The notes under the pieces were generated by a model. It was not told the origin of the DNA, searched no databases, and saw nothing but the letters and a program-made list of their open reading frames with translations. This document shows positions 8,102-57,138 of a stretch of DNA of 64,000 bases, piece after piece. A program made the translations under genes and the position numbers. Every line of letters begins with the position of its first letter. The stretch's first letter is position 1. The stretch is from NCBI RefSeq assembly GCF_055900595.2, contig NZ_CM148325.1. One strand, 5' to 3'.

Positions 8102-8443
8102 CAGGCTGTCGTTATTGTCATGGAAAGTGGAACGATAGTAGTGGCATCAGTGTCGCTACGCAAAGCATTCGACATCAATCGGAATCCTCTGTGTCAGGTC
8201 TTGCCACTGCTTCAAACTTTTACGCCCGTCAAATTGCCCGTTGCATGGCAATTTGGCGCAAAATACTATCTACTGACAAAAAAGATCGCATTAAGTTCGC
8301 CGTTCATCGTCACTTATGTGACATAACCGATAAGTAAAGGCCTTGACATCCTCCCCCACCTTCGCGCAAAGCGACTCAGGAGGGGGATTCCCTTGTCAGG
8401 GTAGCAATACGTTGCCGCATTGCCCGGTTCCTCGCTCGACGGC

Positions 8444-9649
8444 TTACGCCGCCTTACGGGCGCGTCCTTTACGGACTGACGGCAATATTTGTCCTGCCGC
8501 CATGACTTCAAAACCTGCTGTTAATATATTGCGAGCGCCGTTTACATCGGCGTTTGCCGTATAGCCGCACGCGGTACAGATAAAGCTCGCCTGCGTCCTG
8601 CGGTTATTTTTCGATGTATGCCCACAACATGCGCATTTCTGACTGGTGTACGCCGGATTAATCGCCAGCACATCACCGCCGCGCCATGCCTGCTTATATT
8701 CGAGCTGGCGGCGCATTTCTGCCCAGCCCTGATCCAGTATCGCCCGGTTAAGACCTGATTTTGCCGCGACGTTGCGCCCCGGCTGGTCTACCGTACCCGC
8801 TGCTGATTTTGACATGTTCGAAACCTTTAAATCCTCAATGACTATCATCGCGTGGTTTTTGCTGATCGTCGTCGTGGTTTTATGAAGGTAATCGCGGCGG
8901 ATGTTTGCGATATGAGAGTGGAAACGGGAAATCTTCGCTTTCTGCTTTTTCCAGTTGGCGGAGAATTTAACCATCCGGGCCAGACGGCGCTGTAAGCGAG
9001 CCAGCTTATCCTGATTTTTTTTAAAGCTGTTTACCGGTTCAAAGACCGTGCCGTCTGAAAGTGTTGCCAGCTTTGTTATACCTGCATCCAGGCCTATTGC
9101 GCTGGTCGATGCGTGAATCGGATCGGTAACAGCTAATTCGACCTGAAAAGACACATACCAGTGTCCGGCATGCTGGCTGATGGTGCAATTTTTAATGACG
9201 CCTTCAATCTTCCGGGACTGACGAAATTTAACCCAGCCCAGTCCTGACGAGAGTTTCACACGGCCATAATCCAGCCCACAATATTTGCTGAAATTGACGA
9301 ACCGGATAGAGTCGCAGCCTTTGGTTTTCTTTTTGAAAACGGGCTTTTCAGCCGTCAGGGATTTATCAAAACAGCGATCCCATGCGCTCCGCAGGTCTTT
9401 CAGTTTCTGCTGGAGGTTGTCAGTGTAACCCTCAGCAAGAAAGGCCAGCTCAGGGAGTTTTTTCCAGCCCGTAAGTCGTTTATTCAGGTCGAAAGCTGAC
9501 GGAATTTTTCCGCCCGCGTCATGAATGCTCAGTGTTTCATTCAGTGCATAGTTCCAGACAAAGCGAGCGCAACCGCACAACTGACGCAACCTTTGCGCCT
9601 GCTGGTCAGTGGGGTAGAGCCTGTATTTATATGCTTTCTGGATTAACAT
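8444..9649 (-). CDS. tnpB: TnpB (OrfB) RuvC-like putative RNA-guided endonuclease of IS200/IS605 family
   Basis: 401-aa ORF; RuvC-I (AIGLDAGI), RuvC-II (IVIEDLKV), zinc finger CACCGH...CTACGY, RuvC-III (NADVNGARNI) all present. Confidence 0.9.
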   Translation of the reverse strand: MLIQKAYKYRLYPTDQQAQRLRQLCGCARFVWNYALNETLSIHDAGGKIPSAFDLNKRLTGWKKLPELAFLAEGYTDNLQQKLKDLRSAWDRCFDKSLTAEKPVFKKKTKGCDSIRFVNFSKYCGLDYGRVKLSSGLGWVKFRQSRKIEGVIKNCTISQHAGHWYVSFQVELAVTDPIHASTSAIGLDAGITKLATLSDGTVFEPVNSFKKNQDKLARLQRRLARMVKFSANWKKQKAKISRFHSHIANIRRDYLHKTTTTISKNHAMIVIEDLKVSNMSKSAAGTVDQPGRNVAAKSGLNRAILDQGWAEMRRQLEYKQAWRGGDVLAINPAYTSQKCACCGHTSKNNRRTQASFICTACGYTANADVNGARNILTAGFEVMAAGQILPSVRKGRARKAA

Positions 9650-9661
9650 TTTGCATTCAGT

Positions 9662-10114
9662 ATGTGGTTATTTAGAATGTACAATATATCCACATTTTTT
9701 TGGGAGGATCAATACGTGTGCGAAATCAATCGTTCACGCTATTCAGCTTACCTGTTGCATGTTCACGTTGTTTTTATGACAAAATACCGCCGTCCAGTTT
9801 TTGGTGAATTGCATCATGCAAACATGCGTCAGTATGTAGCGGAGGTATGCGCGGACTTTGGCGCCGAGTTAAAGGAATGTGACGGCGAGGCAGATCATGT
9901 TCACATGCTGATTGAATACCCACCGTTGGTGCAACTCACAAAGCTGGTAAACAGCCTTAAGTCCGTTACCAGTAGGCGGCTGCGGAATGATTTTATTGAT
10001 TTGCGCGCCGCGTATTCAAAGCCCGTACTCTGGTCACGCTCTTATTTCATCGGTTCATGTGGTGGAGCACCGCTGGAAGTTGTGAAAAAGTATATTCAGA
10101 ATCAGCGTGGCTGA
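9662..10114 (+). CDS. tnpA: IS200/IS605-family Y1 (HUH) transposase TnpA
   Basis: 150-aa ORF; HVHML (HuH) motif and C-terminal catalytic Tyr region (SYFIGSCGG); true start may be internal to the track ORF. Confidence 0.82.
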   Translation: MWLFRMYNISTFFWEDQYVCEINRSRYSAYLLHVHVVFMTKYRRPVFGELHHANMRQYVAEVCADFGAELKECDGEADHVHMLIEYPPLVQLTKLVNSLKSVTSRRLRNDFIDLRAAYSKPVLWSRSYFIGSCGGAPLEVVKKYIQNQRG

Positions 10115-10184
10115 TAAACTGCGGGCTTAACAGCCCAAATTCCCCTCCCGCCTACGTTGGGGGGGAGTACCCAGTGGAGGAAGG

Positions 10185-11486
10185 ATGGCTCAGGAAATCG
10201 AATTAAAGTTTATTGTTAATCACAGTGCCGTTGAGGCGTTGCGTGACCATCTCAATACGCTGGGCGGCGAGCACCATGACCCCGTGCAGTTGCTGAATAT
10301 TTACTACGAAACGCTGGATAACTGGCTGCGTGGGCACGACATGGGCTTACGTATCCGTGGCGAAAACGGTCGCTATGAGATGACCATGAAAGTTGCAGGA
10401 AGAGTGACAGGCGGCTTACACCAGCGCCCGGAATATAACGTGGCTTTGAGCGAACCGACGCTCGACCTGGCGCAGTTACCGACGGAAGTCTGGCCGAACG
10501 GCGAATTGCCTGCCGATCTCGCTTCCCGCGTACAACCGCTGTTCAGCACCGATTTTTATCGCGAAAAGTGGCTGGTAGAGGTCGATGGTAGCCAAATTGA
10601 AATCGCTCTCGACCAGGGGGAAGTGAAAGCGGGGGAATTTGCTGAGCCTATCTGCGAGCTTGAACTGGAACTGCTTAGCGGCGACACGCGCGCCGTGCTG
10701 AAACTGGCGAACCAACTGGTATCGCAAACCGGATTACGTCAGGGCAGCCTGAGCAAAGCCGCGCGCGGCTATCATCTGGCGCAGGGCAATCCCGCGCGTG
10801 AAATCAAACCGACCACCATTTTGCATGTTGCGGCAAAAGCCGATGTGGAACAGGGGCTGGAAGCGGCGCTCGAGCTGGCGTTAGCGCAATGGCAGTATCA
10901 TGAAGAACTGTGGGTCCGCGGCAACGATGCGGCGAAAGAGCAAGTGCTGGCTGCCATTGGCCTGGTCCGTCATACGCTGATGCTGTTCGGTGGCATTGTG
11001 CCGCGTAAAGCGAGCACTCACTTACGTGACCTGCTGACTCAATGCGAAGCGACCATCGCATCTGCGGTGTCTGCCGTAACGGCGGTCTACTCTACCGAAA
11101 CGGCGATGGCGAAGCTGGCGTTGACCGAATGGCTGGTAAGCAAAGCCTGGCAGCCGTTTTTAGATGCCAAAGCGCAGGGCAAAATCAGCGATTCTTTCAA
11201 ACGCTTTGCCGATATCCATCTTTCCCGCCATGCCGCTGAACTGAAAAGCGTTTTCTGCCAGCCATTAGGCGATCGCTACCGTGACCAATTGCCGCGCCTG
11301 ACGCGTGACATTGACTCAATATTGTTGCTGGCGGGTTACTACGATCCTCTCGTCGCGCAAGCCTGGCTGGAGAACTGGCAGGGACTGCGTCATGCCATTG
11401 CGACCGGGCAACGCATTGAAATTGAACATTTCCGTAATGAGGCAAACAATCAGGAACCGTTCTGGTTGCACAGCGGAAAACGTTAA
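10185..11486 (+). CDS. ygiF: inorganic triphosphatase (CYTH + CHAD domains) YgiF
   Basis: 433-aa [14 protein letters not shown]... (CYTH EXEXK motif); immediately upstream of glnE. Confidence 0.88.
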
Positions 11487-11508
11487 TCAGGCAAGGATAA
11501 AATCGCTT

Positions 11509-14349
11509 ATGAAGCCGCTCTCTTCACCGTTACAGCAGTACTGGCAGACCGTTGTTGAGCGGCTGCCAGCGCCTTTAGCCGAGGAATCACTTAGCGCACA
11601 GGCGAAGTCAGTACTTACCTTCAGTGATTTTGTGCAGGACAGCGTAATTGCGCATCCAGAGTGGCTGACGGAACTGGAAAGCCAGCCGCCGCAGGCCGAC
11701 GAATGGCAGCATTACGGTGCATGGTTGCAGAAGGCGCTCAGTGATGTAAGCGACGAAGCAGGGTTAATGCGTGAGCTGCGTCTGTTCCGGCGGCGCATTA
11801 TGGTGCGCATTGCCTGGGCGCAAACGCTGGCACTGGTTACTGAAGAGAGCATATTGCAGCAGCTCAGCCATCTGGCGGAGACATTGATTGTCGCCGCGCG
11901 TGACTGGCTGTATGAGGCCTGCTGCCGCGAGTGGGGTACGCCCTGCAATGCGCAGGGTGAAGCGCAACCGCTGCTGATTTTAGGCATGGGTAAACTGGGC
12001 GGCGGGGAGCTGAATTTTTCCTCAGATATCGATCTGATTTTTGTCTGGCCGGAACATGGTTGCACGCAGGGCGGACGCAGGGAACTGGATAACGCTCAGT
12101 TCTTTACCCGCATGGGTCAGCGGCTGATTAAAGTGCTGGATCAACCAACGCAGGATGGTTTTGTTTATCGCGTGGATATGCGACTGCGTCCGTTTGGCGA
12201 AAGTGGCCCGCTGGTGCTGAGCTTTGCGGCACTGGAAGACTATTACCAGGAGCAGGGGCGCGACTGGGAGCGTTACGCGATGGTCAAGGCGCGGATTATG
12301 GGGGATAGCGAAGGCGTCTATGCTAACGAGTTGCGTGCGATGCTGCGCCCGTTTGTTTTCCGCCGTTACATCGATTTCAGCGTCATCCAGTCGCTGCGCA
12401 ACATGAAAGGGATGATTGCCCGTGAAGTACGTCGTCGTGGTTTGACCGATAACATCAAACTTGGCGCGGGTGGCATTCGCGAAATTGAATTTATCGTCCA
12501 GGTATTCCAGCTCATTCGCGGCGGGCGCGAACCGTCGCTGCAATCGCGCTCTTTACTGCCAACGCTCAGCGCCATTGCCGCGCTGCATCTGCTTTCTGAA
12601 AACGATGCCGAACAATTGCGAGTGGCGTATCTCTTCCTGCGGCGTCTGGAAAACCTGCTGCAAAGCATTAACGACGAACAAACTCAGACGCTTCCTTCGG
12701 ATGAGCTTAACCGTGCGCGGCTGGCATGGGCAATGGATTTCGCGGACTGGCCGCAACTAACCGGGGCGCTGACCGGACATATGACCAATGTGCGCCGGGT
12801 GTTTAACGAATTGATTGGCGATGACGAAAGCGAAACACAGGAAGAGTCGCTATCGGAACAGTGGCGTGAGTTGTGGCAGGATGCGTTGCAGGAAGATGAC
12901 ACTACGCCAGTACTGGCGCATCTTAGCGAAGATGATCGCAAACAGGTGCTAACACTGATTGCCGATTTCCGCAAAGAGCTGGATAAGCGCACAATCGGGC
13001 CGCGAGGACGTCAGGTGCTCGACCATCTGATGCCGCATCTGCTAAGTGATGTCTGTGCGCGTGAAGACGCTGCTGTCACGCTGTCGCGCATTACGGCTTT
13101 GCTGGTGGGGATTGTTACCCGCACTACCTATCTTGAGCTGCTTAGTGAATTCCCCGCAGCGCTTAAGCATTTGATTTCGCTGTGCGCCGCATCGCCGATG
13201 ATTGCCAGCCAACTGGCGCGTTATCCATTATTGCTGGACGAACTGCTCGATCCGAACACTCTTTACCAGCCGACGGCGACGGATGCCTACCGTGATGAAC
13301 TGCGCCAGTATTTGCTGCGCGTGCCGGAAGATGACGAAGAACAACAGCTTGAGGCGCTGCGTCAGTTCAAACAGGCGCAACTGTTACGTATTGCGGCAGC
13401 GGATATCGCCGGTACGCTACCGGTAATGAAAGTGAGCGATCACTTAACCTGGCTGGCGGAAGCTATGATAGATGCCGTCGTTCAGCAGGCGTGGGTTCAA
13501 ATGGTTGCCCGCTACGGTAAACCGAATCACCTGAACGAACGCGAAGGGCGTGGTTTTGCGGTGGTCGGCTACGGCAAGCTGGGCGGCTGGGAGTTAGGCT
13601 ACAGTTCCGATCTTGACCTGATCTTCCTCCATGATTGCCCAATGGATGCGATGACTGACGGCGAGCGGGAAATCGACGGGCGACAGTTTTATCTGCGTCT
13701 GGCGCAACGCATTATGCACCTGTTCAGCACGCGAACTTCTTCCGGTATTTTGTACGAAGTGGATGCACGGCTGCGTCCGTCCGGGGCGGCGGGAATGCTG
13801 GTTACCTCTGCAGAAGCGTTTGCCGATTATCAGAAAAACGAGGCCTGGACGTGGGAGCATCAGGCGCTGGTGCGTGCGCGTGTAGTGTACGGCGATCCGC
13901 AGCTCACCGCGCACTTTGACGCGGTGCGTCGCGAGATTATGACGCTGCCGCGTGAAGGTAAAACTCTGCAAACGGAAGTGCGGGAAATGCGCGAGAAAAT
14001 GCGCGCGCATCTCGGCAATAAACATCGCGATCGCTTTGATATCAAAGCCGATGAAGGCGGAATTACCGATATCGAATTTATTACCCAATATCTGGTGTTG
14101 CGCTACGCTCATGAAAAACCGAAGTTAACGCGCTGGTCAGACAACGTGCGTATTCTGGAGCTGCTGGCGCAAAACGACATTATGGAAGAGCAGGAAGCGA
14201 TGGCGCTGACCCGTGCTTACACGACGCTGCGCGATGAACTTCATCATCTGGCATTACAGGAATTGCCGGGTCATGTGCCGGAAGATTGCTTTACCGCAGA
14301 GCGTGAACTGGTGCGGGCAAGCTGGCAGAAGTGGCTGGTGGAAGAATGA
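11509..14349 (+). CDS. glnE: glutamine synthetase adenylyltransferase/adenylyl-removing enzyme
   Basis: 946-aa product from ATG 11509 ([20 protein letters not shown]...); track ORF 11305 is an upstream in-frame extension overlapping ygiF. Confidence 0.92.
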
Positions 14350-14396
14350 AGTATGGTATTATCGCGCGCAAATTTTGAATCTCTCAGGAGACAGGA

Positions 14397-15830
14397 ATGA
14401 AAGTAACGCTGCCAGAGTTTGAACGTGCAGGAGTGATGGTGGTTGGTGATGTGATGCTGGATCGTTACTGGTACGGTCCCACCAGCCGTATCTCGCCGGA
14501 AGCGCCGGTGCCCGTGGTTAAAGTGAATACCATCGAAGAACGTCCGGGCGGCGCGGCTAACGTGGCGATGAATATCGCTTCTCTCGGTGCTAATGCACGC
14601 CTGGTCGGGTTGACGGGCATTGACGATGCGGCGCGCGCGCTGAGTAAATCTCTGGCCGACGTCAACGTCAAATGCGACTTCGTTTCTGTACCGACGCATC
14701 CGACCATCACCAAATTACGGGTACTTTCCCGCAACCAACAGCTGATCCGTCTGGATTTTGAAGAAGGTTTCGAAGGGGTTGATCCGCAGCCGCTGCACGA
14801 GCGGATTAATCAGGCGCTGAGTTCGATTGGCGCGCTGGTGCTCTCTGACTACGCGAAAGGTGCGCTGGCAAGCGTGCAGCAGATGATCCAACTGGCGCGT
14901 AAAGCGGGCGTTCCGGTGCTGATTGATCCAAAAGGCACCGATTTTGAGCGCTACCGCGGCGCTACGCTGTTAACGCCGAATCTCTCGGAATTTGAAGCTG
15001 TTGTCGGTAAATGTAAGACCGAAGAAGAGATTGTTGAGCGCGGCATGAAACTGATTGCCGATTACGAACTCTCGGCTCTGTTGGTGACCCGTTCCGAACA
15101 AGGGATGTCGCTGCTGCAACCGGGTAAAGAGCCGCTGCATATGCCAACCCAGGCGCAAGAAGTGTATGACGTCACCGGTGCGGGCGATACGGTGATTGGT
15201 GTGCTGGCAGCAACGCTGGCGGCGGGTAATTCGCTGGAAGAAGCCTGCTTCTTTGCCAACGCGGCGGCCGGTGTGGTGGTTGGCAAACTGGGAACATCCA
15301 CGGTTTCGCCGATCGAGCTGGAAAATGCAGTACGTGGACGTGCAGATACCGGCTTTGGTGTGATGACCGAAGAGGAACTGAAGCTTGCTGTAGCGGCGGC
15401 GCGTAAACGCGGTGAAAAAGTGGTGATGACCAATGGCGTCTTCGACATCCTGCACGCCGGGCACGTCTCCTATCTGGCAAATGCCCGCAAACTGGGTGAC
15501 CGCCTGATTGTCGCTGTGAACAGCGATGCCTCCACCAAACGGCTGAAAGGGGATTCCCGCCCCGTTAACCCTCTCGAACAGCGTATGATTGTGCTGGGGG
15601 CACTGGAAGCGGTCGACTGGGTGGTGTCGTTTGAAGAAGACACGCCGCAGCGCTTGATCGCCGGGATCTTGCCAGACCTGCTGGTGAAAGGCGGCGACTA
15701 TAAACCAGAAGAGATTGCCGGGAGTAAAGAAGTCTGGGCCAACGGTGGCGAAGTGTTGGTGCTCAACTTTGAAGACGGTTGCTCAACGACCAACATCATC
15801 AAGAAGATCCAACAGGATAAAAAAGGCTAA
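14397..15830 (+). CDS. hldE: bifunctional D-glycero-beta-D-manno-heptose-7-phosphate kinase / heptose-1-phosphate adenylyltransferase
   Basis: 477-aa [30 protein letters not shown]... Confidence 0.92.
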
Positions 15831-15909
15831 CCGGAAAGCGGTTCACAGATCTCGCTTCGAACCAGGCAGGCCTATTGACGCTGTTGTTTTTTCAACCTAA
15901 AGTAAAGGA

Positions 15910-16058
15910 ACAAGGGTAAGGGAGGATTTCTCCCCCCTCTGAATTGGTTGTTAATAAGCCTGGAAACTTACTAGTAACAACACAATCAGTATGATGACGA
16001 ACTTCATCATAACCCTTTCCTTCTATAAGGCCCCTTCTTCGGGAGGGGCTTTCCCGTT
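15910..16058 (+). ncRNA. sibD: Sib-family antisense antitoxin RNA (predicted), fully overlapping ibs copy 1
   Basis: Plus-strand promoter TTGACG(15875-80)-17nt-TAAAGT(15898-903); hairpin gcccct-tcttcggg-aggggc at 16029-16049 followed by T-rich tract. Ends approximate. Confidence 0.5.
15951..16010 (-). CDS. ibsD: Ibs-family type I toxin, 19 aa (MMKFVIILIVLLLVSFQAY)
   Basis: Minus-strand ATGATG at 16010, stop at 15951-15953; hydrophobic peptide matching the Ibs toxin pattern; symbol by position (ibsD/ibsE assignment uncertain). Confidence 0.7.
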   Translation of the reverse strand: MMKFVIILIVLLLVSFQAY

Positions 16059-16286
16059 TCAGCCCCTTGCTGACTCCCCGATTGTTGATGAGCGCCAGAC
16101 CCCGCGCAATGCTTTCCCAGAGGCAGTTTTGCCTTCCCCGAGCAGTCACGCAAAACGCTGCAACAGCCTGATCATTTGCAGTTTTTTGTGGAACACAGAT
16201 ATAAAAAATCCCCGGTTTTTTGGGCCAGGGATATGTGTTAATGAAACCTTCTTGACGCTGATTTTTTTTCAACCTAAAGTAAAGGA

Positions 16287-16434
16287 ACAAGGGTAAGGGA
16301 GGATTTCTCCCCCCTCTGAATGGCCGTTAATAAGCGTGGAAACTTATCAGTAACAGCACAATCAGTATGATGACGAACTTCATCATAACCCTTTCCTTAT
16401 GTAAGGCCCCTTCCTCGGGAGGGGCTTTCCCGTT
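16287..16434 (+). ncRNA. sibE: Sib-family antisense antitoxin RNA (predicted), copy 2
   Basis: Promoter TTGACG(16252-57)-17nt-TAAAGT(16275-80); terminator hairpin 16405-16425 + T tract. Ends approximate. Confidence 0.5.
16327..16386 (-). CDS. ibsE: Ibs-family type I toxin, 19 aa (MMKFVIILIVLLLISFHAY)
   Basis: Second repeat copy; minus-strand ATGATG at 16386, stop 16327-16329. Confidence 0.7.
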   Translation of the reverse strand: MMKFVIILIVLLLISFHAY

Positions 16435-16624
16435 TCAGCCCCTTGCTGACTCCCCGATTGTTGATGAGCGCCAGACCCCGCGCAATGCTTTCTCTTATGC
16501 AGTTTTCTCTTCCCCGAGTTGGCTCGCAAAACGCTGTAACAACCTGATCATTTGTACTTTTTAGCGGAACGCAGATATAAAAAATCCCCGGCTTTTTGGG
16601 CCAGGGATGTTCATAGTTGAAAAT

Positions 16625-18301
16625 TTATTCTATGTTTTCTGCGACGGGAGTTGTTGAGGTTAAGGGTGAAGTCAATGCCGCCAGTGAGCCGCCTGAAACG
16701 CCAATTTCATTGAGCAAGGAGTCAATCAGCGGTGCCTGTGTGCGGTAAGAAAGGGCGGCAGACAATGCCTGTTCTGCCAGGTTTCCGCCACTAACGCTGC
16801 CTGATGCCGCATCCCCCGCAGCACCACCTCGGTTTAATCCATCGACCTGAATAATCTTGATGCCGTCAATGGACTTCATCGGCTCAACGGATTTCTCTAT
16901 TACTGCAGGTAACGACTGTAATAGCGCCAGTTTGAATTTAAGGCTGGTTTGCTCGTCAGAAAGTACGTTGATAGCGTCGTTCAGCGCACGTTGCGCTTCT
17001 GCTTCCGCCAGGCCTTTTTTGCGTGTTGCTTCGGCTAACTCAACGATCGCCGCCGCCTGCATCTCTGCGGCTTCTTTCTCTGCGGCTTCTTTCTCTGCTT
17101 TCGCCCGCACGGTCAGTTCAACCGCTTTGGTTTCTGCATCCTGCGCGGCAGCGATTAGGGCAACTTGTTTAGCACGATCGGCTTCTGCGGTCTGGCGAGT
17201 GGTTTCTACGTTTTGCTGGGCGCTTACCGCTTCTGCAAGTGCAAGGTTGGCACGCGCTTCCGCTTGTGACTGCTGTTCCGATTTGGCGGCAATAGCGATC
17301 GATTTCGTCTGGTTGGCGATTTCGGTGACCTGCTGCTGTTCGATCTCTTTAATGCGAACTTCACGTTCAGCTTCAACTTTTCTGGAACGGACGACCTGTT
17401 CGCGGTCGATTTCCGTTTCCTGAATCTGTCGTTCAGCCAGAATTCGCGTCTGCTCTGCTTCCCGACGACGCTCGGCCTCAAAAGCCGCAATTTTCGCATT
17501 CTGCTCAGCGGTACGGGTTTTAACCTGCTGCTCCTGCTCAAGCGTCATAAACGCTTCTTGCTGTTCAATCTCCAGCTTCCGCGAAAGCGCATCACGGTTT
17601 TTCTCACGCACCGCAACTTCTACATCCTGTTCAACTTCGTTACGTTCGCGACGACGGCGCTCCGTCTCCTGCGTCAGCTTGGTTAAACCTTCGGCGTCAA
17701 AGGCGTTGTTAGGATTGAAATGTTCCTTCGACGTCTGGTTAAAGTTGGTAAGTGAAACGCTTTCCAGTTCCAGGCCGTTTTTCGACAGATCTTCAGCAAC
17801 GGTATTTTGTACGCCCTGCACGAAGTTCTCGCGGGTATCCTGTAACTCATGCATGGTCATTTGTGCAGCTGTTGCACGGAGGGCATCGACAAATTTATCT
17901 TCAACCAACATACGTAAGTCTTCAGGCGACAGGGTGCGTTGCCCCAGCGTCTGGGCGGCGGTGGCAATACCTTCCACTGACGGTTTTACCCGCACAAAGA
18001 AAGCGACAACGACATCGACGCGCATACGATCTTTCGTAATCAGGCTATCAATGGTTGAGCGGCTGACTTCCAGCTTCAGAGTATTCATATTGATGGGGAT
18101 TATTTCATGAAAGATCGGCATCACGATTGCGCCACCGCTCATTACCACTTTTTGCCCACCTAAACCAGTACGAACAAAAGCTTGCTCTGCCGAAGCGCGA
18201 CGATAGAGCCTGGCGAAAATAATTCCAATAATAAACAGAATGCATACGGCAATAATTGCGGTAAACATCCAGGAGGGCACAGAATTAACAATATCATCCA
18301 T
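16625..18301 (-). CDS. yqiK: SPFH/band-7 (flotillin-like) membrane protein YqiK
   Basis: 558-aa ORF; N-terminal TM, SPFH domain, long Ala/Glu/Gln-rich coiled-coil. Confidence 0.85.
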   Translation of the reverse strand: MDDIVNSVPSWMFTAIIAVCILFIIGIIFARLYRRASAEQAFVRTGLGGQKVVMSGGAIVMPIFHEIIPINMNTLKLEVSRSTIDSLITKDRMRVDVVVAFFVRVKPSVEGIATAAQTLGQRTLSPEDLRMLVEDKFVDALRATAAQMTMHELQDTRENFVQGVQNTVAEDLSKNGLELESVSLTNFNQTSKEHFNPNNAFDAEGLTKLTQETERRRRERNEVEQDVEVAVREKNRDALSRKLEIEQQEAFMTLEQEQQVKTRTAEQNAKIAAFEAERRREAEQTRILAERQIQETEIDREQVVRSRKVEAEREVRIKEIEQQQVTEIANQTKSIAIAAKSEQQSQAEARANLALAEAVSAQQNVETTRQTAEADRAKQVALIAAAQDAETKAVELTVRAKAEKEAAEKEAAEMQAAAIVELAEATRKKGLAEAEAQRALNDAINVLSDEQTSLKFKLALLQSLPAVIEKSVEPMKSIDGIKIIQVDGLNRGGAAGDAASGSVSGGNLAEQALSAALSYRTQAPLIDSLLNEIGVSGGSLAALTSPLTSTTPVAENIE

Positions 18302-18327
18302 TATTAAATTTCCTTTTGATTAATAAA

Positions 18328-18957
18328 TTACAGTATTTGGGGCCAGGGTTTTTTTTTCGCCAAATATCGCGTTGCAGAAAGTCGGCAAATAATTAATACT
18401 TTGTCTCCTTTAGTGAAAGTTTTTTCTTCTTCAGGTTCCAGTAGTAAATAATGTATTTGGCCAAATTGATCGGTGAGTTTTCCTTCACAGGGGTTACCTG
18501 AAGTGGCCTGATGTCCGGTAATTAATGCCATGCAGCCAATATATTCTTCTTCTGTAATAGCTGAACTATGGTCGCGTGGAATCCAGGGCGCAACTATTTT
18601 ACCGGTATAATGCACCGCAATAATCGTTAGCAGTAAACTGACAGGAACCACAAACAGATTTGTGAGTGGTGATTGCCAGACCATGATGCAGACCTGCTGT
18701 AGCAGGATGCCAATAAGGCCAAAAAAACCAGCATGTAAGCAGAGAACGACGAGAGCTGGCAATCTTCCAAAATTGAGATAATGAAGTGCCTGGCTAATAT
18801 GACCTGTGGTTATGGAATCATAATGGTCAAGATGTGCATCAAGAGCACCGGAAAGCATGTGACCGCAGATAAGTGCAAAAATTTCTAAAAGGCCGATCAA
18901 AAGTACAAAAGAAATAGCGAAAAGATAAGGGGTGTTATAGTCAGCGAATAAAATCAT
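18328..18957 (-). CDS. yqiJ: NfeD-like inner membrane protein YqiJ (partner of YqiK)
   Basis: 209-aa membrane ORF immediately upstream of yqiK in the same orientation. Confidence 0.82.
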
Positions 18958-19226
18958 ATGTCACTCCAATGTCCATTTAGTGACGCAATATTTATTTTGC
19001 GATAATTTCCTTGCTTACATTTATCTTTGTTAATAATAACACATGTTAGCGATGTTCTGAAAGAGAAAGTCTTTTAATGTTGTTTTTTTATTTTTCACTA
19101 AAAAGTGTGATCGGGAACAATATATTTACGCACGTTATGTTTAAAGGCACTACACTGATTGGGGAATACTGAAATCAGAAAAAGCATATGGCCTTAAAAG
19201 GTATGCGATAACCGGAGGATGTGCTT

Positions 19227-19427
19227 ATGGATCATAGTCTTAATTCTTTAAATAACTTCGATTTCCTGGCGCGTAGTTTTGCCAGAATGCACGCAGAAGG
19301 TCGCCCGGTCGATATTCTGGCCGTTACTGGTAACATGGATGAAGAACATAGAACCTGGTTTTGCGCACGTTATGCCTGGTATTGCCAACAGATGATGCAA
19401 ACCAGAGAACTGGAATTAGAACATTGA
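19227..19427 (+). CDS. glgS: surface composition regulator GlgS
   Basis: 66-aa [32 protein letters not shown]... Confidence 0.85.
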
Positions 19428-19431
19428 TATT

Positions 19432-19454
19432 ACGGGCCGTCTGGCCCGTTTTTG
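19432..19454. terminator. bidirectional Rho-independent terminator between convergent glgS and ubiK
   Basis: acgggcc-gtct-ggcccgt stem-loop followed by TTTTG. Confidence 0.5.
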
Positions 19455-19461
19455 TGGTGCT

Positions 19462-20820: not shown

Positions 20821-21528
20821 AAATATCCTCCGGCATAGCCGGAGGTTTTTCAAATGCGCCTGTAAGGCTCTGTTACCAGCCGCGCCCTAACAGGCGCATA
20901 CGATCTGACATTTGCATTCAACTTCGTTACTTACGGCCCGTAAACGGGCTGCCCGGATATGGAATCGATAACTGCTCCCCCATTTTATCCTCTTCAAGCT
21001 GGTGCTTTATGTAGTCCTGTATCTTCGCCGTGTTCTTACCCACCGTATCGACATAGTACCCTCGGCACCAGAACTCCCTGTTTCTGTATTTGAATTTCAA
21101 ATCCCCAAACTGCTCGTAAAGCATCAGACTGCTTTTCCCTTTCAGATATCCCATAAAGCCGGATACGCTCATTTTGGGTGGGATTTCCACAAGCATATGG
21201 ATATGATCTGCGCAGCACTCTGCTTCCAGAATCCGTACGCTTTTCCACTCACACAGCTTTCTCAAAATACTGCCTATCGCCCTACGCTTCTCTCCGTAAA
21301 ACGCCAGTCTTCGGTATTTCGGCGCAAAAACTATGTGATATTTACAGTTCCAGCGGGTGTGCGCTAAGCTCTTTTCGTCCCCCATTGGGACCCCCTTTTG
21401 ATTTCTTGTTTGACACTTGCAGTTGCCAGACCGCAAGGTGTTTTAACAAATCAAAAGGGGTTTTAATAACTGGCTCAAAGCTGAAAGCTTTCCGGAACCC
21501 CCAGCCTAGCTGGGGGTTTTCTGTGCAC
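20821..21528 (-). mobile_element. IS200 insertion sequence (~708 bp); ends inferred (+/-20 bp)
   Basis: 152-aa IS200 TnpA; left end (high coordinate) inferred from hairpins at 21495-21517 and 21391-21460, which match the recalled IS200 leader positions (nt 12-34 and 69-138). Confidence 0.65.
20927..21385 (-). CDS. tnpA: IS200 transposase TnpA (Y1/HUH)
   Basis: MGDEKSLAHTRWNCKYHIVFAPKYRR...HIHMLVEIPP...; 152 aa from second in-frame ATG. Confidence 0.9.
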   Translation of the reverse strand: MGDEKSLAHTRWNCKYHIVFAPKYRRLAFYGEKRRAIGSILRKLCEWKSVRILEAECCADHIHMLVEIPPKMSVSGFMGYLKGKSSLMLYEQFGDLKFKYRNREFWCRGYYVDTVGKNTAKIQDYIKHQLEEDKMGEQLSIPYPGSPFTGRK

Positions 21529-36562: not shown

Positions 36563-36899
36563 TGAAGAATCTTTACCGGAGTGTGAGTCAAATCACTCGC
36601 TATCAGTTTAAGTTAACGATGCCACAGGCGTAATGTTGTCCGCTCAGACTCTGACGGCACAGGATTTTGTCCTTCCACACAGAAACCGCCATTGGCGGTT
36701 TTCCGCTGCATAATCCTCAGGATTATGTCTATAGCAAAGAGTTGTATATAAAGGCACATTGGTGCCTTTATCGCCGTCGGAGCACGTCCGGCGGCGCTAT
36801 TCACGCTGATCTCCTGTGACTCGACGCGGCAGATAATGTAGTATCTCCGGCAATATTGCCCCTTTGAAGGCTGGCGAATAAGTTGAGGAATCAGAATTA

Positions 36900-55791: not shown

Positions 55792-55800
55792 GGCAAAGTG
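55792..55800. repeat. 9-bp target site duplication (GGCAAAGTG), left copy
   Basis: Identical 9-mer directly flanks both IS10 ends. Confidence 0.85.
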
Positions 55801-55813
55801 CTGAGAGATCCCC

Positions 55814-57022
55814 TCATAATTTCCCCAAAACGTAACCATGTGTGAATAGATTTTGAGTAAGCAGGGTTGCAGCCACGAGTGAGTCTTCCCTTGTTATTGT
55901 GTAGCCAGAATGCCGCAAAACTTCCATGCCTAAGCGAACTGTTGAGAGTACGTTTCGATTTCTGACTGTGTTAGCCTGGAAGTGCTTGTCCCAACCTTGT
56001 TTCTGAGCATGAACGCCCGCAAGCCAACATGTTAGTTGAAGCATCAGGGCGATTAGCAGCATGATATCAAAACGCTCTGAGCTGCTCGTTCGGCTATGGC
56101 GTAGGCCTAGTCCGTAGGCAGGACTTTTCAAGTCTCGGAAGGTTTCTTCAATCTGCATTCGCTTCGAATAGATATTAACAAGTTGTTTGGGTGTTCGAAT
56201 TTCAACAGGTAAGTTAGTTGCTAGAATCCATGGCTCCTTTGCCGACGCTGAGTAGATTTTAGGTGACGGGTGGTGACAATGAGTCCGTGTCGAGCGCTGA
56301 TTTTTTCGGCCTTTAGAGCGAGATTTATACAATAGAATTTGGCATGAGATTGGATTGCTTTTAGTCAGCCTCTTATAGCCTAAAGTCTTTGAGTGACTAG
56401 ATGACATATCATGTAAGTTGCTGATAGGTTTCCAGTTTTCCGCTCCTAGGTCTGCATATTGTACTTTTCCTCTTACTCGACTTAACCAGTACCAACCCAG
56501 CTTCTCAACGGATTTATACCATGGCACTTTAAAGCCAGCATCACTGACAATGAGCGGTGTGGTGTTACTCGGTAGAATGCTCGCAAGGTCGGCTAGAAAT
56601 TGGTCATGAGCTTTCTTTGAACATTGCTCTGAAAGCGGGAACGCTTTCTCATAAAGAGTAACAGAACGACCGTGTAGTGCGACTGAAGCTCGCAATACCA
56701 TAAGCCGTTTTTGCTCACGGATATCAGACCAGTCAACAAGTACAATGGGCATCGTATTGCCCGAACAGATAAAGCTAGCATGCCAACGGTATACAGCGAG
56801 TCGCTCTTTGTGGAGGTGACGATTACCTAACAATCGGTCGATTCGTTTGATGTTATGTTTTGTTCTCGCTTTGGTTGGCAGGTTACGGCCAAGTTCGGTA
56901 AGAGTGAGAGTTTTACAGTCAAGTAAGGCGTGGCAAGCCAACGTTAAGCTGTTGAGTCGTTTTAAGTGTAATTCGGGGCAGAATTGGTAAAGAGAGTCGT
57001 GTAAAATATCGAGTTCGCACAT
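55814..57022 (-). CDS. tnp: IS10 transposase (IS4 family, DDE)
   Basis: 402-aa ORF MCELDILHDSLYQFCPELHLKRLNSLTLACHALLDCKTLTLTELGRNLPTKARTKHNIKRIDRLLGN... Confidence 0.95.
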   Translation of the reverse strand: MCELDILHDSLYQFCPELHLKRLNSLTLACHALLDCKTLTLTELGRNLPTKARTKHNIKRIDRLLGNRHLHKERLAVYRWHASFICSGNTMPIVLVDWSDIREQKRLMVLRASVALHGRSVTLYEKAFPLSEQCSKKAHDQFLADLASILPSNTTPLIVSDAGFKVPWYKSVEKLGWYWLSRVRGKVQYADLGAENWKPISNLHDMSSSHSKTLGYKRLTKSNPISCQILLYKSRSKGRKNQRSTRTHCHHPSPKIYSASAKEPWILATNLPVEIRTPKQLVNIYSKRMQIEETFRDLKSPAYGLGLRHSRTSSSERFDIMLLIALMLQLTCWLAGVHAQKQGWDKHFQANTVRNRNVLSTVRLGMEVLRHSGYTITREDSLVAATLLTQNLFTHGYVLGKL

Positions 57023-57083
57023 TTTGTTGTCTGATTATTGATTTTTGGCGAAACCATTTGATCATATGACAAGATGTGTATCC
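57015..57083 (+). ncRNA. IS10 RNA-OUT antisense RNA (predicted from IS10 coordinates)
   Basis: Corresponds to IS10 bp 115-47; sequence tcgcacattttgttgtctgattattgatttttggcgaaaccatttgatcatatgacaagatgtgtatcc is antisense to the transposase start; GATC (dam) site in the pIN -10 region. Confidence 0.5.
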
Positions 57084-57129
57084 ACCTTAACTTAATGATT
57101 TTTACCAAAATCATTAGGGGATTCATCAG

Positions 57130-57138
57130 GGCAAAGTG
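57130..57138. repeat. 9-bp target site duplication (GGCAAAGTG), right copy
   Basis: Identical to 55792-55800. Confidence 0.85.

Follow-up and report, generated by a model that had tools for sequence, protein, structure and literature searches.

Organization and conservation of the locus

In the 64,000-nt stretch of contig NZ_CM148325.1 (assembly GCF_055900595.2) analyzed here (hereafter, the window), the yqiK and yqiJ genes, both on the minus strand, fill positions 16,625–18,957 exactly, as follows from the comparison of the ORF list with this span. Downstream of yqiK are two tandem units, each with an ibs toxin ORF and an antisense Sib RNA, followed by hldE (Table 1). The gene order and orientation are those of Escherichia coli K-12 MG1655, namely, yqiJ (b3050)-yqiK (b3051)-sibD/ibsD-sibE/ibsE-hldE, and the collinear nucleotide alignment gives 94% identity (~94% overall, 91–93% in the repeats). 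The window shares with K-12 the terminator hairpin that follows yqiK, the 376-bp tandem duplication and the 26-nt yqiJ-yqiK spacer, which is 100% identical between the two. The ibs peptides differ by a few residues, the 16 nt from the yqiK stop codon to the hairpin differ as well, and the ygiL-yqiGHI fimbrial operon, a neighbor of the locus in K-12, is absent in the window.

At least 80% of the region 15,800–19,200 is held in one place by 5336 of the 5426 complete E. coli genomes (98%); the features of the locus are conserved and far beyond chance expectation. In a 100% identical genome, RefSeq names the products of yqiK and yqiJ “flotillin family protein” and “OB-fold-containing protein,” respectively. 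All parts of the locus are already annotated and published, i.e., the YqiJ/YqiK NfeD2-flotillin pair, the Sib/Ibs repeats and their placement between yqiK and hldE. With its parts known and its layout so widespread, the locus by itself carries little weight.

Table 1. Features of the yqiJ-yqiK locus and the adjacent Ibs/Sib repeats (coordinates in the window).
Feature	Coordinates	Strand	Description and evidence
hldE	14397..15830	+	ORF and annotation; converges on the locus; context
Small hairpin followed by U-run	15829..15843	-	Terminator scan; overlaps the hldE stop codon; weak candidate end for unit 1 ibs transcripts
Repeat unit 1	15875..16251		Position of K-12 sibE/ibsE
Sib antitoxin RNA, unit 1	15910..16054	+	Rfam, 142.9 bits; promoter-like site at 15875
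ibs toxin ORF, unit 1	15951..16010	-	MMKFVIILIVLLLVSFQAY; RefSeq annotation, K-12 Ibs alignment
Hairpin copy at the start of unit 1	16198..16232	-	Downstream of unit 2 ibs; 8-bp stem, 9-nt loop, UUUUUUAUAU; alignment
Repeat unit 2	16252..16608		Position of K-12 sibD/ibsD; orthology to K-12 from annotation and alignment
Sib antitoxin RNA, unit 2	16287..16430	+	Rfam; promoter 16252-16280, +1 A at 16287; terminator stem 16403-16428, then CCCGUUU
ibs toxin ORF, unit 2	16327..16386	-	MMKFVIILIVLLLISFHAY; RefSeq annotation of an identical genome, alignment with K-12 IbsA-E
ibs promoter, unit 2	16447..16475	-	TTGCGC, 17-nt spacer, AACAAT; probable start site near 16440; conserved in D/E-type ibs copies
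Putative intrinsic terminator of yqiK, first element of unit 2	16574..16608	-	9-bp stem (AUCCCUGGC/GCCGGGGAU), 7-nt loop, then UUUUUAUAUC; terminator scan
Putative counterpart of the K-12 Rho-dependent termination region	16600..16625	+	K-12 position 3194538 maps to ~16612 by alignment; transferred by homology
Non-repeat spacer, 16 nt	16609..16624	-	yqiK stop codon to repeat edge; no inter-unit homology beyond 16608; differs from K-12
yqiK	16625..18301	-	SPFH protein of the flotillin type, 558 aa; predicted membrane anchor at the N-terminus, then SPFH domain, Glu/Ala-rich coiled coil and C-terminal Flot domain; ORF, Pfam
15-bp perfect tandem repeat in yqiK	17062..17098	-	2.5 copies; Tandem Repeats Finder; 15-nt gap in K-12 alignment
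yqiJ-yqiK spacer, 26 nt	18302..18327	-	Shine-Dalgarno AAGGAA 8 nt before the yqiK ATG; no hairpin; read from sequence
yqiJ	18328..18957	-	209-aa inner-membrane protein: N-terminal transmembrane helices, C-terminal OB-fold; NfeD2-like flotillin partner; ORF, Pfam, AlphaFold
Candidate sigma-70 promoter of yqiJK	19033..19061	-	TTCAGA, 17-nt spacer, TATTAT, extended TG; ~75 nt upstream of the yqiJ ATG; weak; consensus scan

The yqiJ-yqiK pair

The YqiK protein contains a Band_7/SPFH domain (PF01145; residues 39–190, E = 1.3e-18, 68 bits against a cut-off of 23.6) and a Flot domain (PF15975; residues 411–535, E = 7.9e-40), and its translation includes a stretch rich in E, A, Q and R (approximately residues 245–433). 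The hydrophobic residues 11–33 (WMFTAIIAVCILFIIGIIFARLY) are predicted, from the sequence, to form a membrane anchor. E. coli proteins 100% identical to YqiK carry the name “flotillin family protein.” A phmmer search of the PDB with YqiK gave nothing at E ≤ 0.001, with flotillin-2 (1win) appearing only at E = 0.38. Compared to K-12, yqiK shows 89 synonymous and 10 non-synonymous codon differences, and the protein is longer (558 aa vs. 553 aa in K-12) by one extra AEKEA, which comes from the 15-bp repeat. In the protein alignment, there are one, two or three AEKEA copies depending on the strain, and the length of the coiled coil varies widely among strains (a short YqiK variant has 527 aa, a long one 575 aa), which could be of interest to students of SPFH cage geometry. 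In K-12, YqiK-GFP was undetectable (PMC10434171), and there is hardly any expression of yqiJK in laboratory media (~70 reads per 800 nt).

The only Pfam families matched by YqiJ are YqiJ_N (E = 7.8e-16) and YqiJ_OB (E = 6.1e-15); there is no match to NfeD (PF01957) even at E ≤ 10, nor does a sequence search against solved structures yield a match. Judged by its sequence, YqiJ is a member of its own Pfam families and not of NfeD, and a comparison of folds was therefore needed. The AlphaFold model (mean pLDDT 79.6) has long helices at residues 6–30, 68–94 and 100–125, taken as the N-terminal transmembrane helices, and a beta domain at residues 143–202 (pLDDT ~90); by AlphaFold and Foldseek, the C-terminal domain is an OB-fold beta-barrel like those of PH0471, 1510-C and YuaF. 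The top four Foldseek matches of the model in the PDB are all NfeD-type: the best is YbbJ of the QmcA-YbbJ complex (8z5g, E = 1.8e-4), and the others are 1510-C (3wwv, E = 3.0e-4, target TM-score 0.79), MTH693 (2k5h) and YuaF (2k14). Thus, the fold of YqiJ, as modeled, is NfeD-like.

The preliminary description of this region presented the NfeD-like membrane protein and the flotillin-like SPFH protein as a conserved pair, and this view is well supported by the common strand and short spacer of the two genes, by their same-strand adjacency also in K-12, Salmonella, E. albertii and Citrobacter rodentium, by the best matches of the YqiJ model, and by the literature, where the YqiJ/YqiK pairing is published as an NfeD2-SPFH2 operon (PMC2636767; PMC10434171). 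A parallel is the yuaF-floT (yuaG) pair of Bacillus subtilis, in which the gene for an NfeD-type OB-fold membrane protein likewise lies immediately upstream of the gene for a flotillin-type SPFH protein; both pairs have been placed in the NfeD2/SPFH2 group (Hinderhofer et al., 2009; PMC2636767), and the YqiJ model matches the soluble domain of YuaF (2k14), with 10% identity in the structural match. The two pairs differ in that their sequence similarity is very low and that YqiJ falls into separate Pfam families instead of NfeD. Another SPFH-NfeD partnership, in the same organism as yqiJK, is that of E. coli qmcA-ybbJ (SPFH1-NfeD1, with the cryo-EM structure 8z5g), but QmcA is of the stomatin type whereas YqiK is of the flotillin type, the SPFH gene precedes its partner, opposite to the order in yqiJK (PMC10434171), and there are no Sib/ibs neighbors.

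We propose that yqiJ and yqiK form a two-gene operon for an NfeD2-like OB-fold membrane protein and a flotillin-type SPFH scaffold. If they resemble the SPFH assemblies with solved structures, QmcA-YbbJ among them, the two proteins should assemble into an oligomeric cage at the cytoplasmic side of the inner membrane. The candidate promoter upstream of yqiJ is a weak call because such sites occur in this region at the frequency expected from shuffled sequence. In K-12, Term-seq detects RNA from the 5′ UTR of yqiJ, where an orphan 3′ end is located 28 nt before the ATG, so that the start site should lie upstream of that point.

The Ibs/Sib tandem repeats

The tandem repeat at 15,875–16,608 has a period of 376 bp and 1.9 copies, with 91% matches (Tandem Repeats Finder score 1258). 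The Rfam SIB_RNA model (RF00113, gathering threshold 56 bits) matches the plus strand twice, in both cases over the full model length, at 15,875–16,025 (142.9 bits) and at 16,252–16,401 (147.4 bits). Both ibs ORFs are contained within the Sib spans on the opposite strand, i.e., each Sib RNA is fully antisense to its ibs and has its own promoter-like site and terminator fold (−24.6 kcal/mol in unit 2 and −23.4 kcal/mol in unit 1); the ends of the unit 2 Sib RNA are placed by homology to K-12 sibD. The Ibs proteins are 19-aa hydrophobic peptides homologous to the five K-12 peptides IbsA-E and are annotated in RefSeq as “Ibs family toxin”; the Salmonella Ibs orthologue matches the Pfam family Ibs_toxin. 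In K-12, the toxicity of Ibs is repressed by the cognate Sib RNA, and the sites at which ibsC and ibsD transcripts start have been mapped to conserved promoter elements upstream of the ORFs (Han et al., 2010; PMC2943612).

Along the yqiK strand, each unit would begin with a terminator, continue with the ibs promoter and then the ibs ORF, which the antisense Sib RNA overlaps, and close with the Sib promoter; this arrangement is tandemly duplicated in E. coli. The small hairpin at the hldE stop codon is a weak candidate for the end of the unit 1 ibs transcripts because the surrounding region folds no better than shuffled sequences do.

The putative terminator hairpin at the repeat edge

The yqiK stop codon occupies positions 16,625–16,627. 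The earlier statement that yqiK directly abuts the repeats holds, the gap being 16 nt; as for the distance of ~5 bp given there, an ungapped extension of the homology to 16,620 reproduces it, but the true homology ends at 16,608. Beyond that position, the two units match at only 13 of 30 bases, and the real gap is 16 nt (16,609–16,624). An extension of the repeat into the yqiK coding sequence was also considered and rejected: the 120 nt upstream of each hairpin align with a score of 15, compared to a shuffle mean of 14.8, and 228 of the 500 shuffles reach this score.

The base of the hairpin that we consider to be the intrinsic terminator of yqiK marks the exact limit of the repeat homology. 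Six of the 9 bp in its stem are G-C pairs, and the U-tract follows directly on the transcribed strand; the fold has an energy of −18.3 kcal/mol (z = −3.0), with none of the 200 shuffles as good, and the stem recurs in K-12, E. albertii and Salmonella, where the substitutions leave the pairing intact (four lineages in all). Consensus scans for promoters and terminators gave no enrichment of sites over shuffled sequence, so that the case for the terminator is built on position, fold energy and conservation. From these features, we infer that the hairpin terminates yqiK transcripts in vivo. Neither the K-12 Term-seq tables (Adams et al., 2021) nor the TERMITe supplements contain a 3′ end of the yqiK mRNA, probably because the operon is very weakly expressed in laboratory media. 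A bidirectional function as an intrinsic terminator was rejected: on the plus strand, no U-tract follows, and the fold is unremarkable (z = −1.2). The copy of the hairpin at the start of unit 1 is weaker because of a G-to-A change and folds no better than shuffled sequence (−14.1 kcal/mol, z = −1.1).

According to the proposed scheme, the operon would end at this intrinsic terminator, 16 nt past the yqiK stop codon, and the same hairpin would open the 376-bp unit. Each ibs gene, being downstream of and co-directional with yqiK, would be shielded from upstream read-through by a copy of the terminator. The serA-ibsC/sibC locus of K-12 presents a parallel, with a co-directional upstream gene that has an intrinsic terminator ~200 nt upstream of the ibs ATG and with a Sib RNA that converges on serA as Sib does on yqiK. 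It differs from the yqiK locus in that the unit is present in a single copy, the hairpin sequence is unrelated, and the upstream gene is a highly expressed metabolic one.

The exact coincidence of the hairpin base with the start of the repeat homology and the duplication of the hairpin along with the unit raise the alternative that the hairpin belongs to the Ibs/Sib repeat as an imported boundary or insulator and serves yqiK only secondarily. The ibsC copy also has a hairpin with a U-tract at an equal distance upstream of ibs, and C. rodentium, in which Sib/ibs is missing from this place, has a different hairpin between yqiK and hldE. However, the ibsC hairpin, unrelated in sequence, is the serA terminator, the sibA/sibB units lack such a hairpin, and homology that extends to each of the five copies in K-12 does not begin before TTGCGAG, ~55 nt downstream of the U-tract. 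This alternative, which is compatible with the explanation that we favor, appears rather unlikely, although it fares better than the other alternatives discussed below.

Transcription across the boundary

The transcript data considered here are all from K-12, whose identity to the window across this intergenic unit is only 91%; the K-12 transcript ends probably apply to the strain represented by the window as well. In K-12, the 3′ end of the ibsD mRNA is at 3194855 (plus strand) and that of SibD at 3194756 (minus strand; supplementary tables of Adams et al., 2021). The ibs gene is on the yqiK strand and downstream of it, and in K-12 its mRNA 3′ end lies 330 nt past the stop codon of yqiK, so that ibs transcripts at no point overlap that gene. 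Each Sib RNA runs toward yqiK but ends ~190 nt away from it, at its own hairpin of approximately −24 kcal/mol.

On the Sib strand, a strong signal of Rho-dependent termination (Rho score 24.5, p = 5e-222; supplementary file 2 of Adams et al., 2021) has been reported at 3194538, which is outside yqiK and 13 nt from its stop codon, with coarse resolution given that the score is built on 800-nt windows. The DirectRNA-seq counts upstream/downstream of this point are 1130/53 without bicyclomycin (BCM) and 1252/1439 with BCM (Adams et al., 2021), i.e., the antisense coverage of yqiK in K-12 increases from 53 to 1439 reads, or ~27-fold. The Sib strand upstream of the corresponding point in the window contains a C-rich, G-poor tract (16,430–16,560, C/G 1.4–1.7). 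The low antisense coverage without BCM and the high coverage with BCM suggest that antisense transcription could enter yqiK but that Rho normally stops it; the Rho score does not separate antisense RNA that originates from the Sib or hldE promoters from that produced by cryptic promoters inside yqiK.

We propose that the Sib RNAs would stop at their own strong terminators and that the remainder heading toward yqiK would be halted by Rho just outside the stop codon. Together, the terminator hairpin and, on the opposite strand, termination by Rho appear to separate yqiJK from Ibs/Sib, and the evidence points to insulation with a latent antisense threat that is held back by Rho. It is highly probable that this locus of a divergent E. 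coli lineage is orthologous to yqiJ-yqiK/sibD-ibsD/sibE-ibsE/hldE of K-12, and that its two systems are insulated neighbors rather than a coupled regulatory unit. The suggestion in the preliminary description that toxin-antitoxin transcription may interfere with the 3′ end of yqiJK does not fare well, since ibs is downstream and co-directional, a hairpin in the yqiK orientation lies in between, and Sib has its own terminators; what support it retains comes from the BCM data. The modest gain is a clear map of the boundary, where the repeat edge coincides with the putative yqiK terminator, duplicated together with the toxin module, and where, on the opposite strand, the published K-12 data put a strong Rho-dependent stop at the same point, which answers the earlier question of interference.

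A specific form of interference is read-through of Sib, possibly joined by hldE, antisense into the 3′ end of yqiK, which would lower yqiJK expression by polymerase collision or RNA duplex formation. The convergence of Sib on yqiK is compatible with such an effect, as are the extreme abundance of the K-12 Sib RNAs (Term-seq counts of 1.8–4.4 million), the very strong Rho-dependent region with the antisense increase under BCM, and the low expression of YqiK, although a weak or uninduced promoter explains low yqiJK expression equally well. The scan gave no promoter-like site on the plus strand at 16,430–16,612, which makes read-through the simplest source of the antisense RNA. However, the coverage downstream of the Rho point is ~5% of the upstream coverage without BCM, so that Rho normally prevents the overlap of Sib with yqiK, the Sib terminators are strong (−23 to −25 kcal/mol), and the literature found contains no phenotypic or expression link between Sib and yqiK. 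We therefore give little credence to this form of interference.

Even less probable is a yqiK terminator that is leaky by design, such that induction of yqiJK would lead to read-through into ibs, and toxin would be made whenever the flotillin is. In favor of this idea, yqiK and both ibs genes point in one direction at a distance of ~240 nt, the U-tract (UUUUUAUAUC) is interrupted and the unit 1 hairpin is weakened. Against it, ibs is transcribed from a mapped promoter of its own into a short (~160 nt) mRNA (PMC2943612), the K-12 ibsD 3′ end is discrete, the hairpin stem is conserved from Salmonella to E. coli, and abundant Sib RNA would neutralize long read-through ibs transcripts as well.

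One can further speculate, as a distinctly unlikely possibility, that the hairpin at the repeat edge is a two-way boundary element, selected and duplicated with the toxin module, which on the yqiK strand blocks read-through into ibs and on the Sib strand marks and protects the 3′ end of Rho-terminated read-through RNA. If so, a drop in Rho activity under stress would allow abundant Sib or hldE transcription to invade yqiK in the antisense direction and turn the flotillin operon off, which would make membrane-scaffold expression conditionally dependent on a type I toxin-antitoxin locus.

The yqiJ-yqiK Pair and its Genomic Context

As noted in the preliminary description, yqiJ and yqiK (16625-18957) adjoin tandem Sib/Ibs repeats, and this observation is borne out by the ORFs, the Pfam domains, the annotation and the repeat map. 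The predicted YqiK protein matches the Pfam families Band_7/SPFH (E 1.3e-18) and Flot (E 7.9e-40), and YqiJ has the YqiJ_N and YqiJ_OB domains. A genome with 100% identity over 15800-19200 has these genes annotated as "flotillin family protein" (yqiK) and "OB-fold-containing protein" (yqiJ), with two "Ibs family toxin" genes and hldE alongside. The gene order is that of E. coli K-12 MG1655 (yqiJ, yqiK, sibD/ibsD, sibE/ibsE, hldE), with the window being the reverse complement of K-12. The locus is already known, and the entire arrangement is present in one place in 5336 of 5426 complete genomes; the allele itself is rare, with 8 of 5426 genomes at least 99% identical over 15800-19200. Judging from the sequence, the source of the window is a divergent E. 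coli lineage; most of the window is 96-98% identical to K-12, vs. 94.6% in 10185-19456.

Features of the yqiJK-Sib/Ibs locus (window coordinates; the Sib RNAs are on the + strand)
Feature	Coordinates	Strand	Remarks
yqiJ ORF	18957->18328	-	209 aa
yqiK ORF	18301->16625	-	558 aa
yqiK-side hairpin	16608..16584	-	last 25 nt of repeat; 9-bp G+C-rich stem, then UUUUUAUAUC
ibs promoter, unit 2	16475..16447	-	TTGCGC-17-AACAAT
Sib terminator, unit 2	16403-16436	+	~190 nt before yqiK stop codon
ibs ORF, unit 2	16327-16386	-	antisense within SIB_RNA unit
Second hairpin copy	16232..16208	-	between the two ibs genes; slightly weaker
ibs ORF, unit 1	15951-16010	-	antisense within SIB_RNA unit

The adjacency of yqiJ and yqiK extends to Salmonella, E. 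albertii and Citrobacter rodentium. The 26-nt spacer (TAA-TTTATTAATCAAAAGGAAATTTAATA-ATG) is 100% identical to that of K-12, includes a Shine-Dalgarno sequence and contains no hairpin; the two genes are predicted to form an operon. A promoter-like site, recognized by consensus match only, precedes yqiJ by ~75 nt. In K-12 the genes are expressed at a very low level: DirectRNA-seq gives ~70 reads for the 800 nt that follow the yqiJ 5' UTR, and YqiK-GFP expressed from the chromosome was undetectable in that strain (PMC10434171). K-12 Term-seq also contains a weak "orphan" RNA 3' end at 3192180 (+ strand of that genome; window ~18985), 28 nt before the ATG of yqiJ, which is probably not a regulated stop given its low Rho and intrinsic-terminator scores (1.1 and 1.55, respectively). 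It is adjoined by a 6-bp hairpin, GUCACU...AGUGAC, that immediately follows the yqiJ Shine-Dalgarno sequence, with the 3' arm ending 2 nt short of the ATG.

YqiJ had been described as NfeD-like and the two genes as a conserved pair. By sequence, YqiJ is not a member of the Pfam NfeD family, with no match even at E <= 10, and a sequence search against solved structures yielded no match either. A structure predicted from a 30-sequence alignment (mean pLDDT 79.6) suggests a C-terminal beta domain (residues 143-202, pLDDT ~90) preceded by three long membrane helices. The best four Foldseek matches of this model in the PDB are all NfeD-type: YbbJ in the E. coli QmcA-YbbJ SPFH-NfeD complex (8z5g, E 1.8e-4), Pyrococcus horikoshii 1510-C (3wwv, target TM-score 0.79), MTH693 (2k5h) and Bacillus subtilis YuaF (2k14). 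Thus, at the level of predicted fold and operon context, the label holds. The pair, likewise supported by fold and by adjacency across lineages, has already been published: NfeD2/SPFH2 pairs were defined by these same two features, fold and operon context, and yqiJ/yqiK were named explicitly (Hinderhofer et al., 2009, PMC2636767).

A Predicted Terminator at the Edge of the Sib/Ibs Repeats

Tandem Repeats Finder detects a tandem repeat spanning 15875-16608 (period 376 bp, 91% matches), and Rfam SIB_RNA is found on the + strand of both units (143 and 147 bits for unit 1, 15875-16251, and unit 2, 16252-16608, respectively). The repeat and yqiK indeed adjoin, but the gap is not the reported ~5 bp, a value that follows from ungapped extension of the repeat to 16620. 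Past 16608, the similarity between the units is no better than chance, so that 16 nt separate the true edge from the yqiK stop codon. In the direction of yqiK transcription, each unit would comprise, in this order, a terminator, the ibs promoter, the ibs ORF with the antisense Sib RNA, and the Sib promoter. In unit 2, the ibs ORF and the next ~40 nt (16327-16400) differ from K-12 ibsD and match the only ibs copy of E. albertii at every base.

The hairpin at the repeat edge (-18.3 kcal/mol, z -3.0) is a predicted intrinsic terminator oriented for yqiK. A bidirectional intrinsic terminator is ruled out because no U-tract follows the hairpin on the + strand. The hairpin is kept across lineages: the K-12 copy is identical, that of E. 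albertii carries two one-sided changes that leave base pairing intact, and in Salmonella a loop change lengthens the stem. Salmonella and E. albertii each have a single Sib/ibs unit, whereas C. rodentium has none, and its 49-nt yqiK-hldE gap contains an unrelated hairpin. The second copy, between the ibs genes, is accounted for by a duplication in E. coli that took in the hairpin. At the single-copy sibC/ibsC locus of K-12, serA is co-directional with ibsC, as yqiK is with ibs; the serA terminator is unrelated in sequence, yet is located at the same distance upstream of ibsC as the yqiK hairpin is from ibs.

Probable Insulation of yqiK from Sib/Ibs Transcription

The proposed interference of the toxin-antitoxin transcripts with the yqiJK 3' end is not borne out for ibs, which is downstream of yqiK and co-directional, and hence cannot disturb that end. 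The ibs genes have their own mapped promoter and an mRNA of ~160 nt (Han 2010, PMC2943612), and the K-12 ibs 3' end (3194855; Adams et al., 2021) lies 330 nt beyond the stop codon of yqiK.

The Sib RNAs do converge on yqiK, but each stops at a hairpin that has a UUCG-type loop and a folding energy of -23 to -25 kcal/mol; the main SibD 3' end in K-12, at 3194756, corresponds to the known 110-nt form. The published result that bears most on this question is a region of Rho termination, classed as "antisense yqiK", that is listed for the Sib strand at K-12 3194538 (Rho score 24.5, p 5e-222, computed from 800-nt windows, such that the authors refer to "regions" rather than sites); in the absence of bicyclomycin, 1130 reads lie upstream of it and 53 downstream, vs. 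1252 and 1439 with the drug (Adams et al., 2021, supplementary file 2). This position lies outside yqiK, at a distance of 13 nt from the stop codon and 5 nt beyond the hairpin, and maps to ~16612 in the window, all Rho and transcript-end data being from K-12. Immediately before it (16430-16560), the Sib strand is rich in C and poor in G, the composition expected of a Rho loading site.

In our reading, the potential for antisense invasion of yqiK exists and is suppressed ~20-fold by Rho in ordinary growth. The antisense RNA could come from Sib or hldE read-through, or from cryptic promoters inside yqiK. No obvious intrinsic terminator of hldE is present on its own strand (15822-15880), so that hldE read-through would enter the Sib genes in sense; a small hairpin with a U-run at the hldE stop codon faces the opposite (ibs) strand. 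Given the Sib terminators and the Rho region before the stop codon, interference by Sib is latent only. We conclude that yqiJK and Sib/Ibs are insulated neighbors.

Variation in YqiK and Other Differences from K-12

Among the best 120 E. coli/Salmonella protein clusters, YqiK varies from 527 to 575 aa, and every indel falls in the coiled coil (residues ~245-433; window 16990-17570). The indels are duplications or deletions of short blocks, namely EQ repeats, AERRREAEQTRIL, AEADRAKQVALI, AEATRKKGL and AEKEA (1-3 copies); they include the 15-bp repeat of the window (17062-17098). The helical (coiled-coil) region forms the wall of SPFH cages, and cage height may therefore differ among strains. 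To our knowledge, this length polymorphism has not been described. Coiled-coil indels aside, YqiK is under strong purifying selection, with 89 synonymous vs. 10 non-synonymous codon differences from K-12. Codons 437-520 (~16740-16990), with 84% nucleotide identity to K-12 vs. 96% in the 5' part of the gene and 27 synonymous and 5 non-synonymous differences, look like an old or imported allele segment.

Elsewhere in the window, glgS and ubiK are direct neighbors (19428-19461), whereas in K-12 they are separated by the ygiL-yqiGHI fimbrial operon with IS2 in yqiG (~6.5 kb). By megablast only, ~130 bp (36564-36692) replace ~2.5 kb of K-12 (3166181-3168747) that include most of ygiS and the mqsR-mqsA toxin-antitoxin pair. 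A 1.84-kb insertion relative to K-12, adjoining the ygiF start (8346-10184), encodes a 150-aa Y1 transposase of the IS200 type, together with a 401-aa IS605 OrfB/TnpB-like protein in which a Cas12f1-like TNB domain is present. Another insertion, of 1.3 kb (55800-57130), with a 402-aa DDE transposase and an Rfam RNA-OUT match at 57015-57084, is an IS10-like element. Finally, a ~700-bp segment without a megablast match to the K-12 region (20823-21528) contains a match to the Hfq-binding sRNA STnc490 (Rfam, 21395-21518, - strand, 146 bits).
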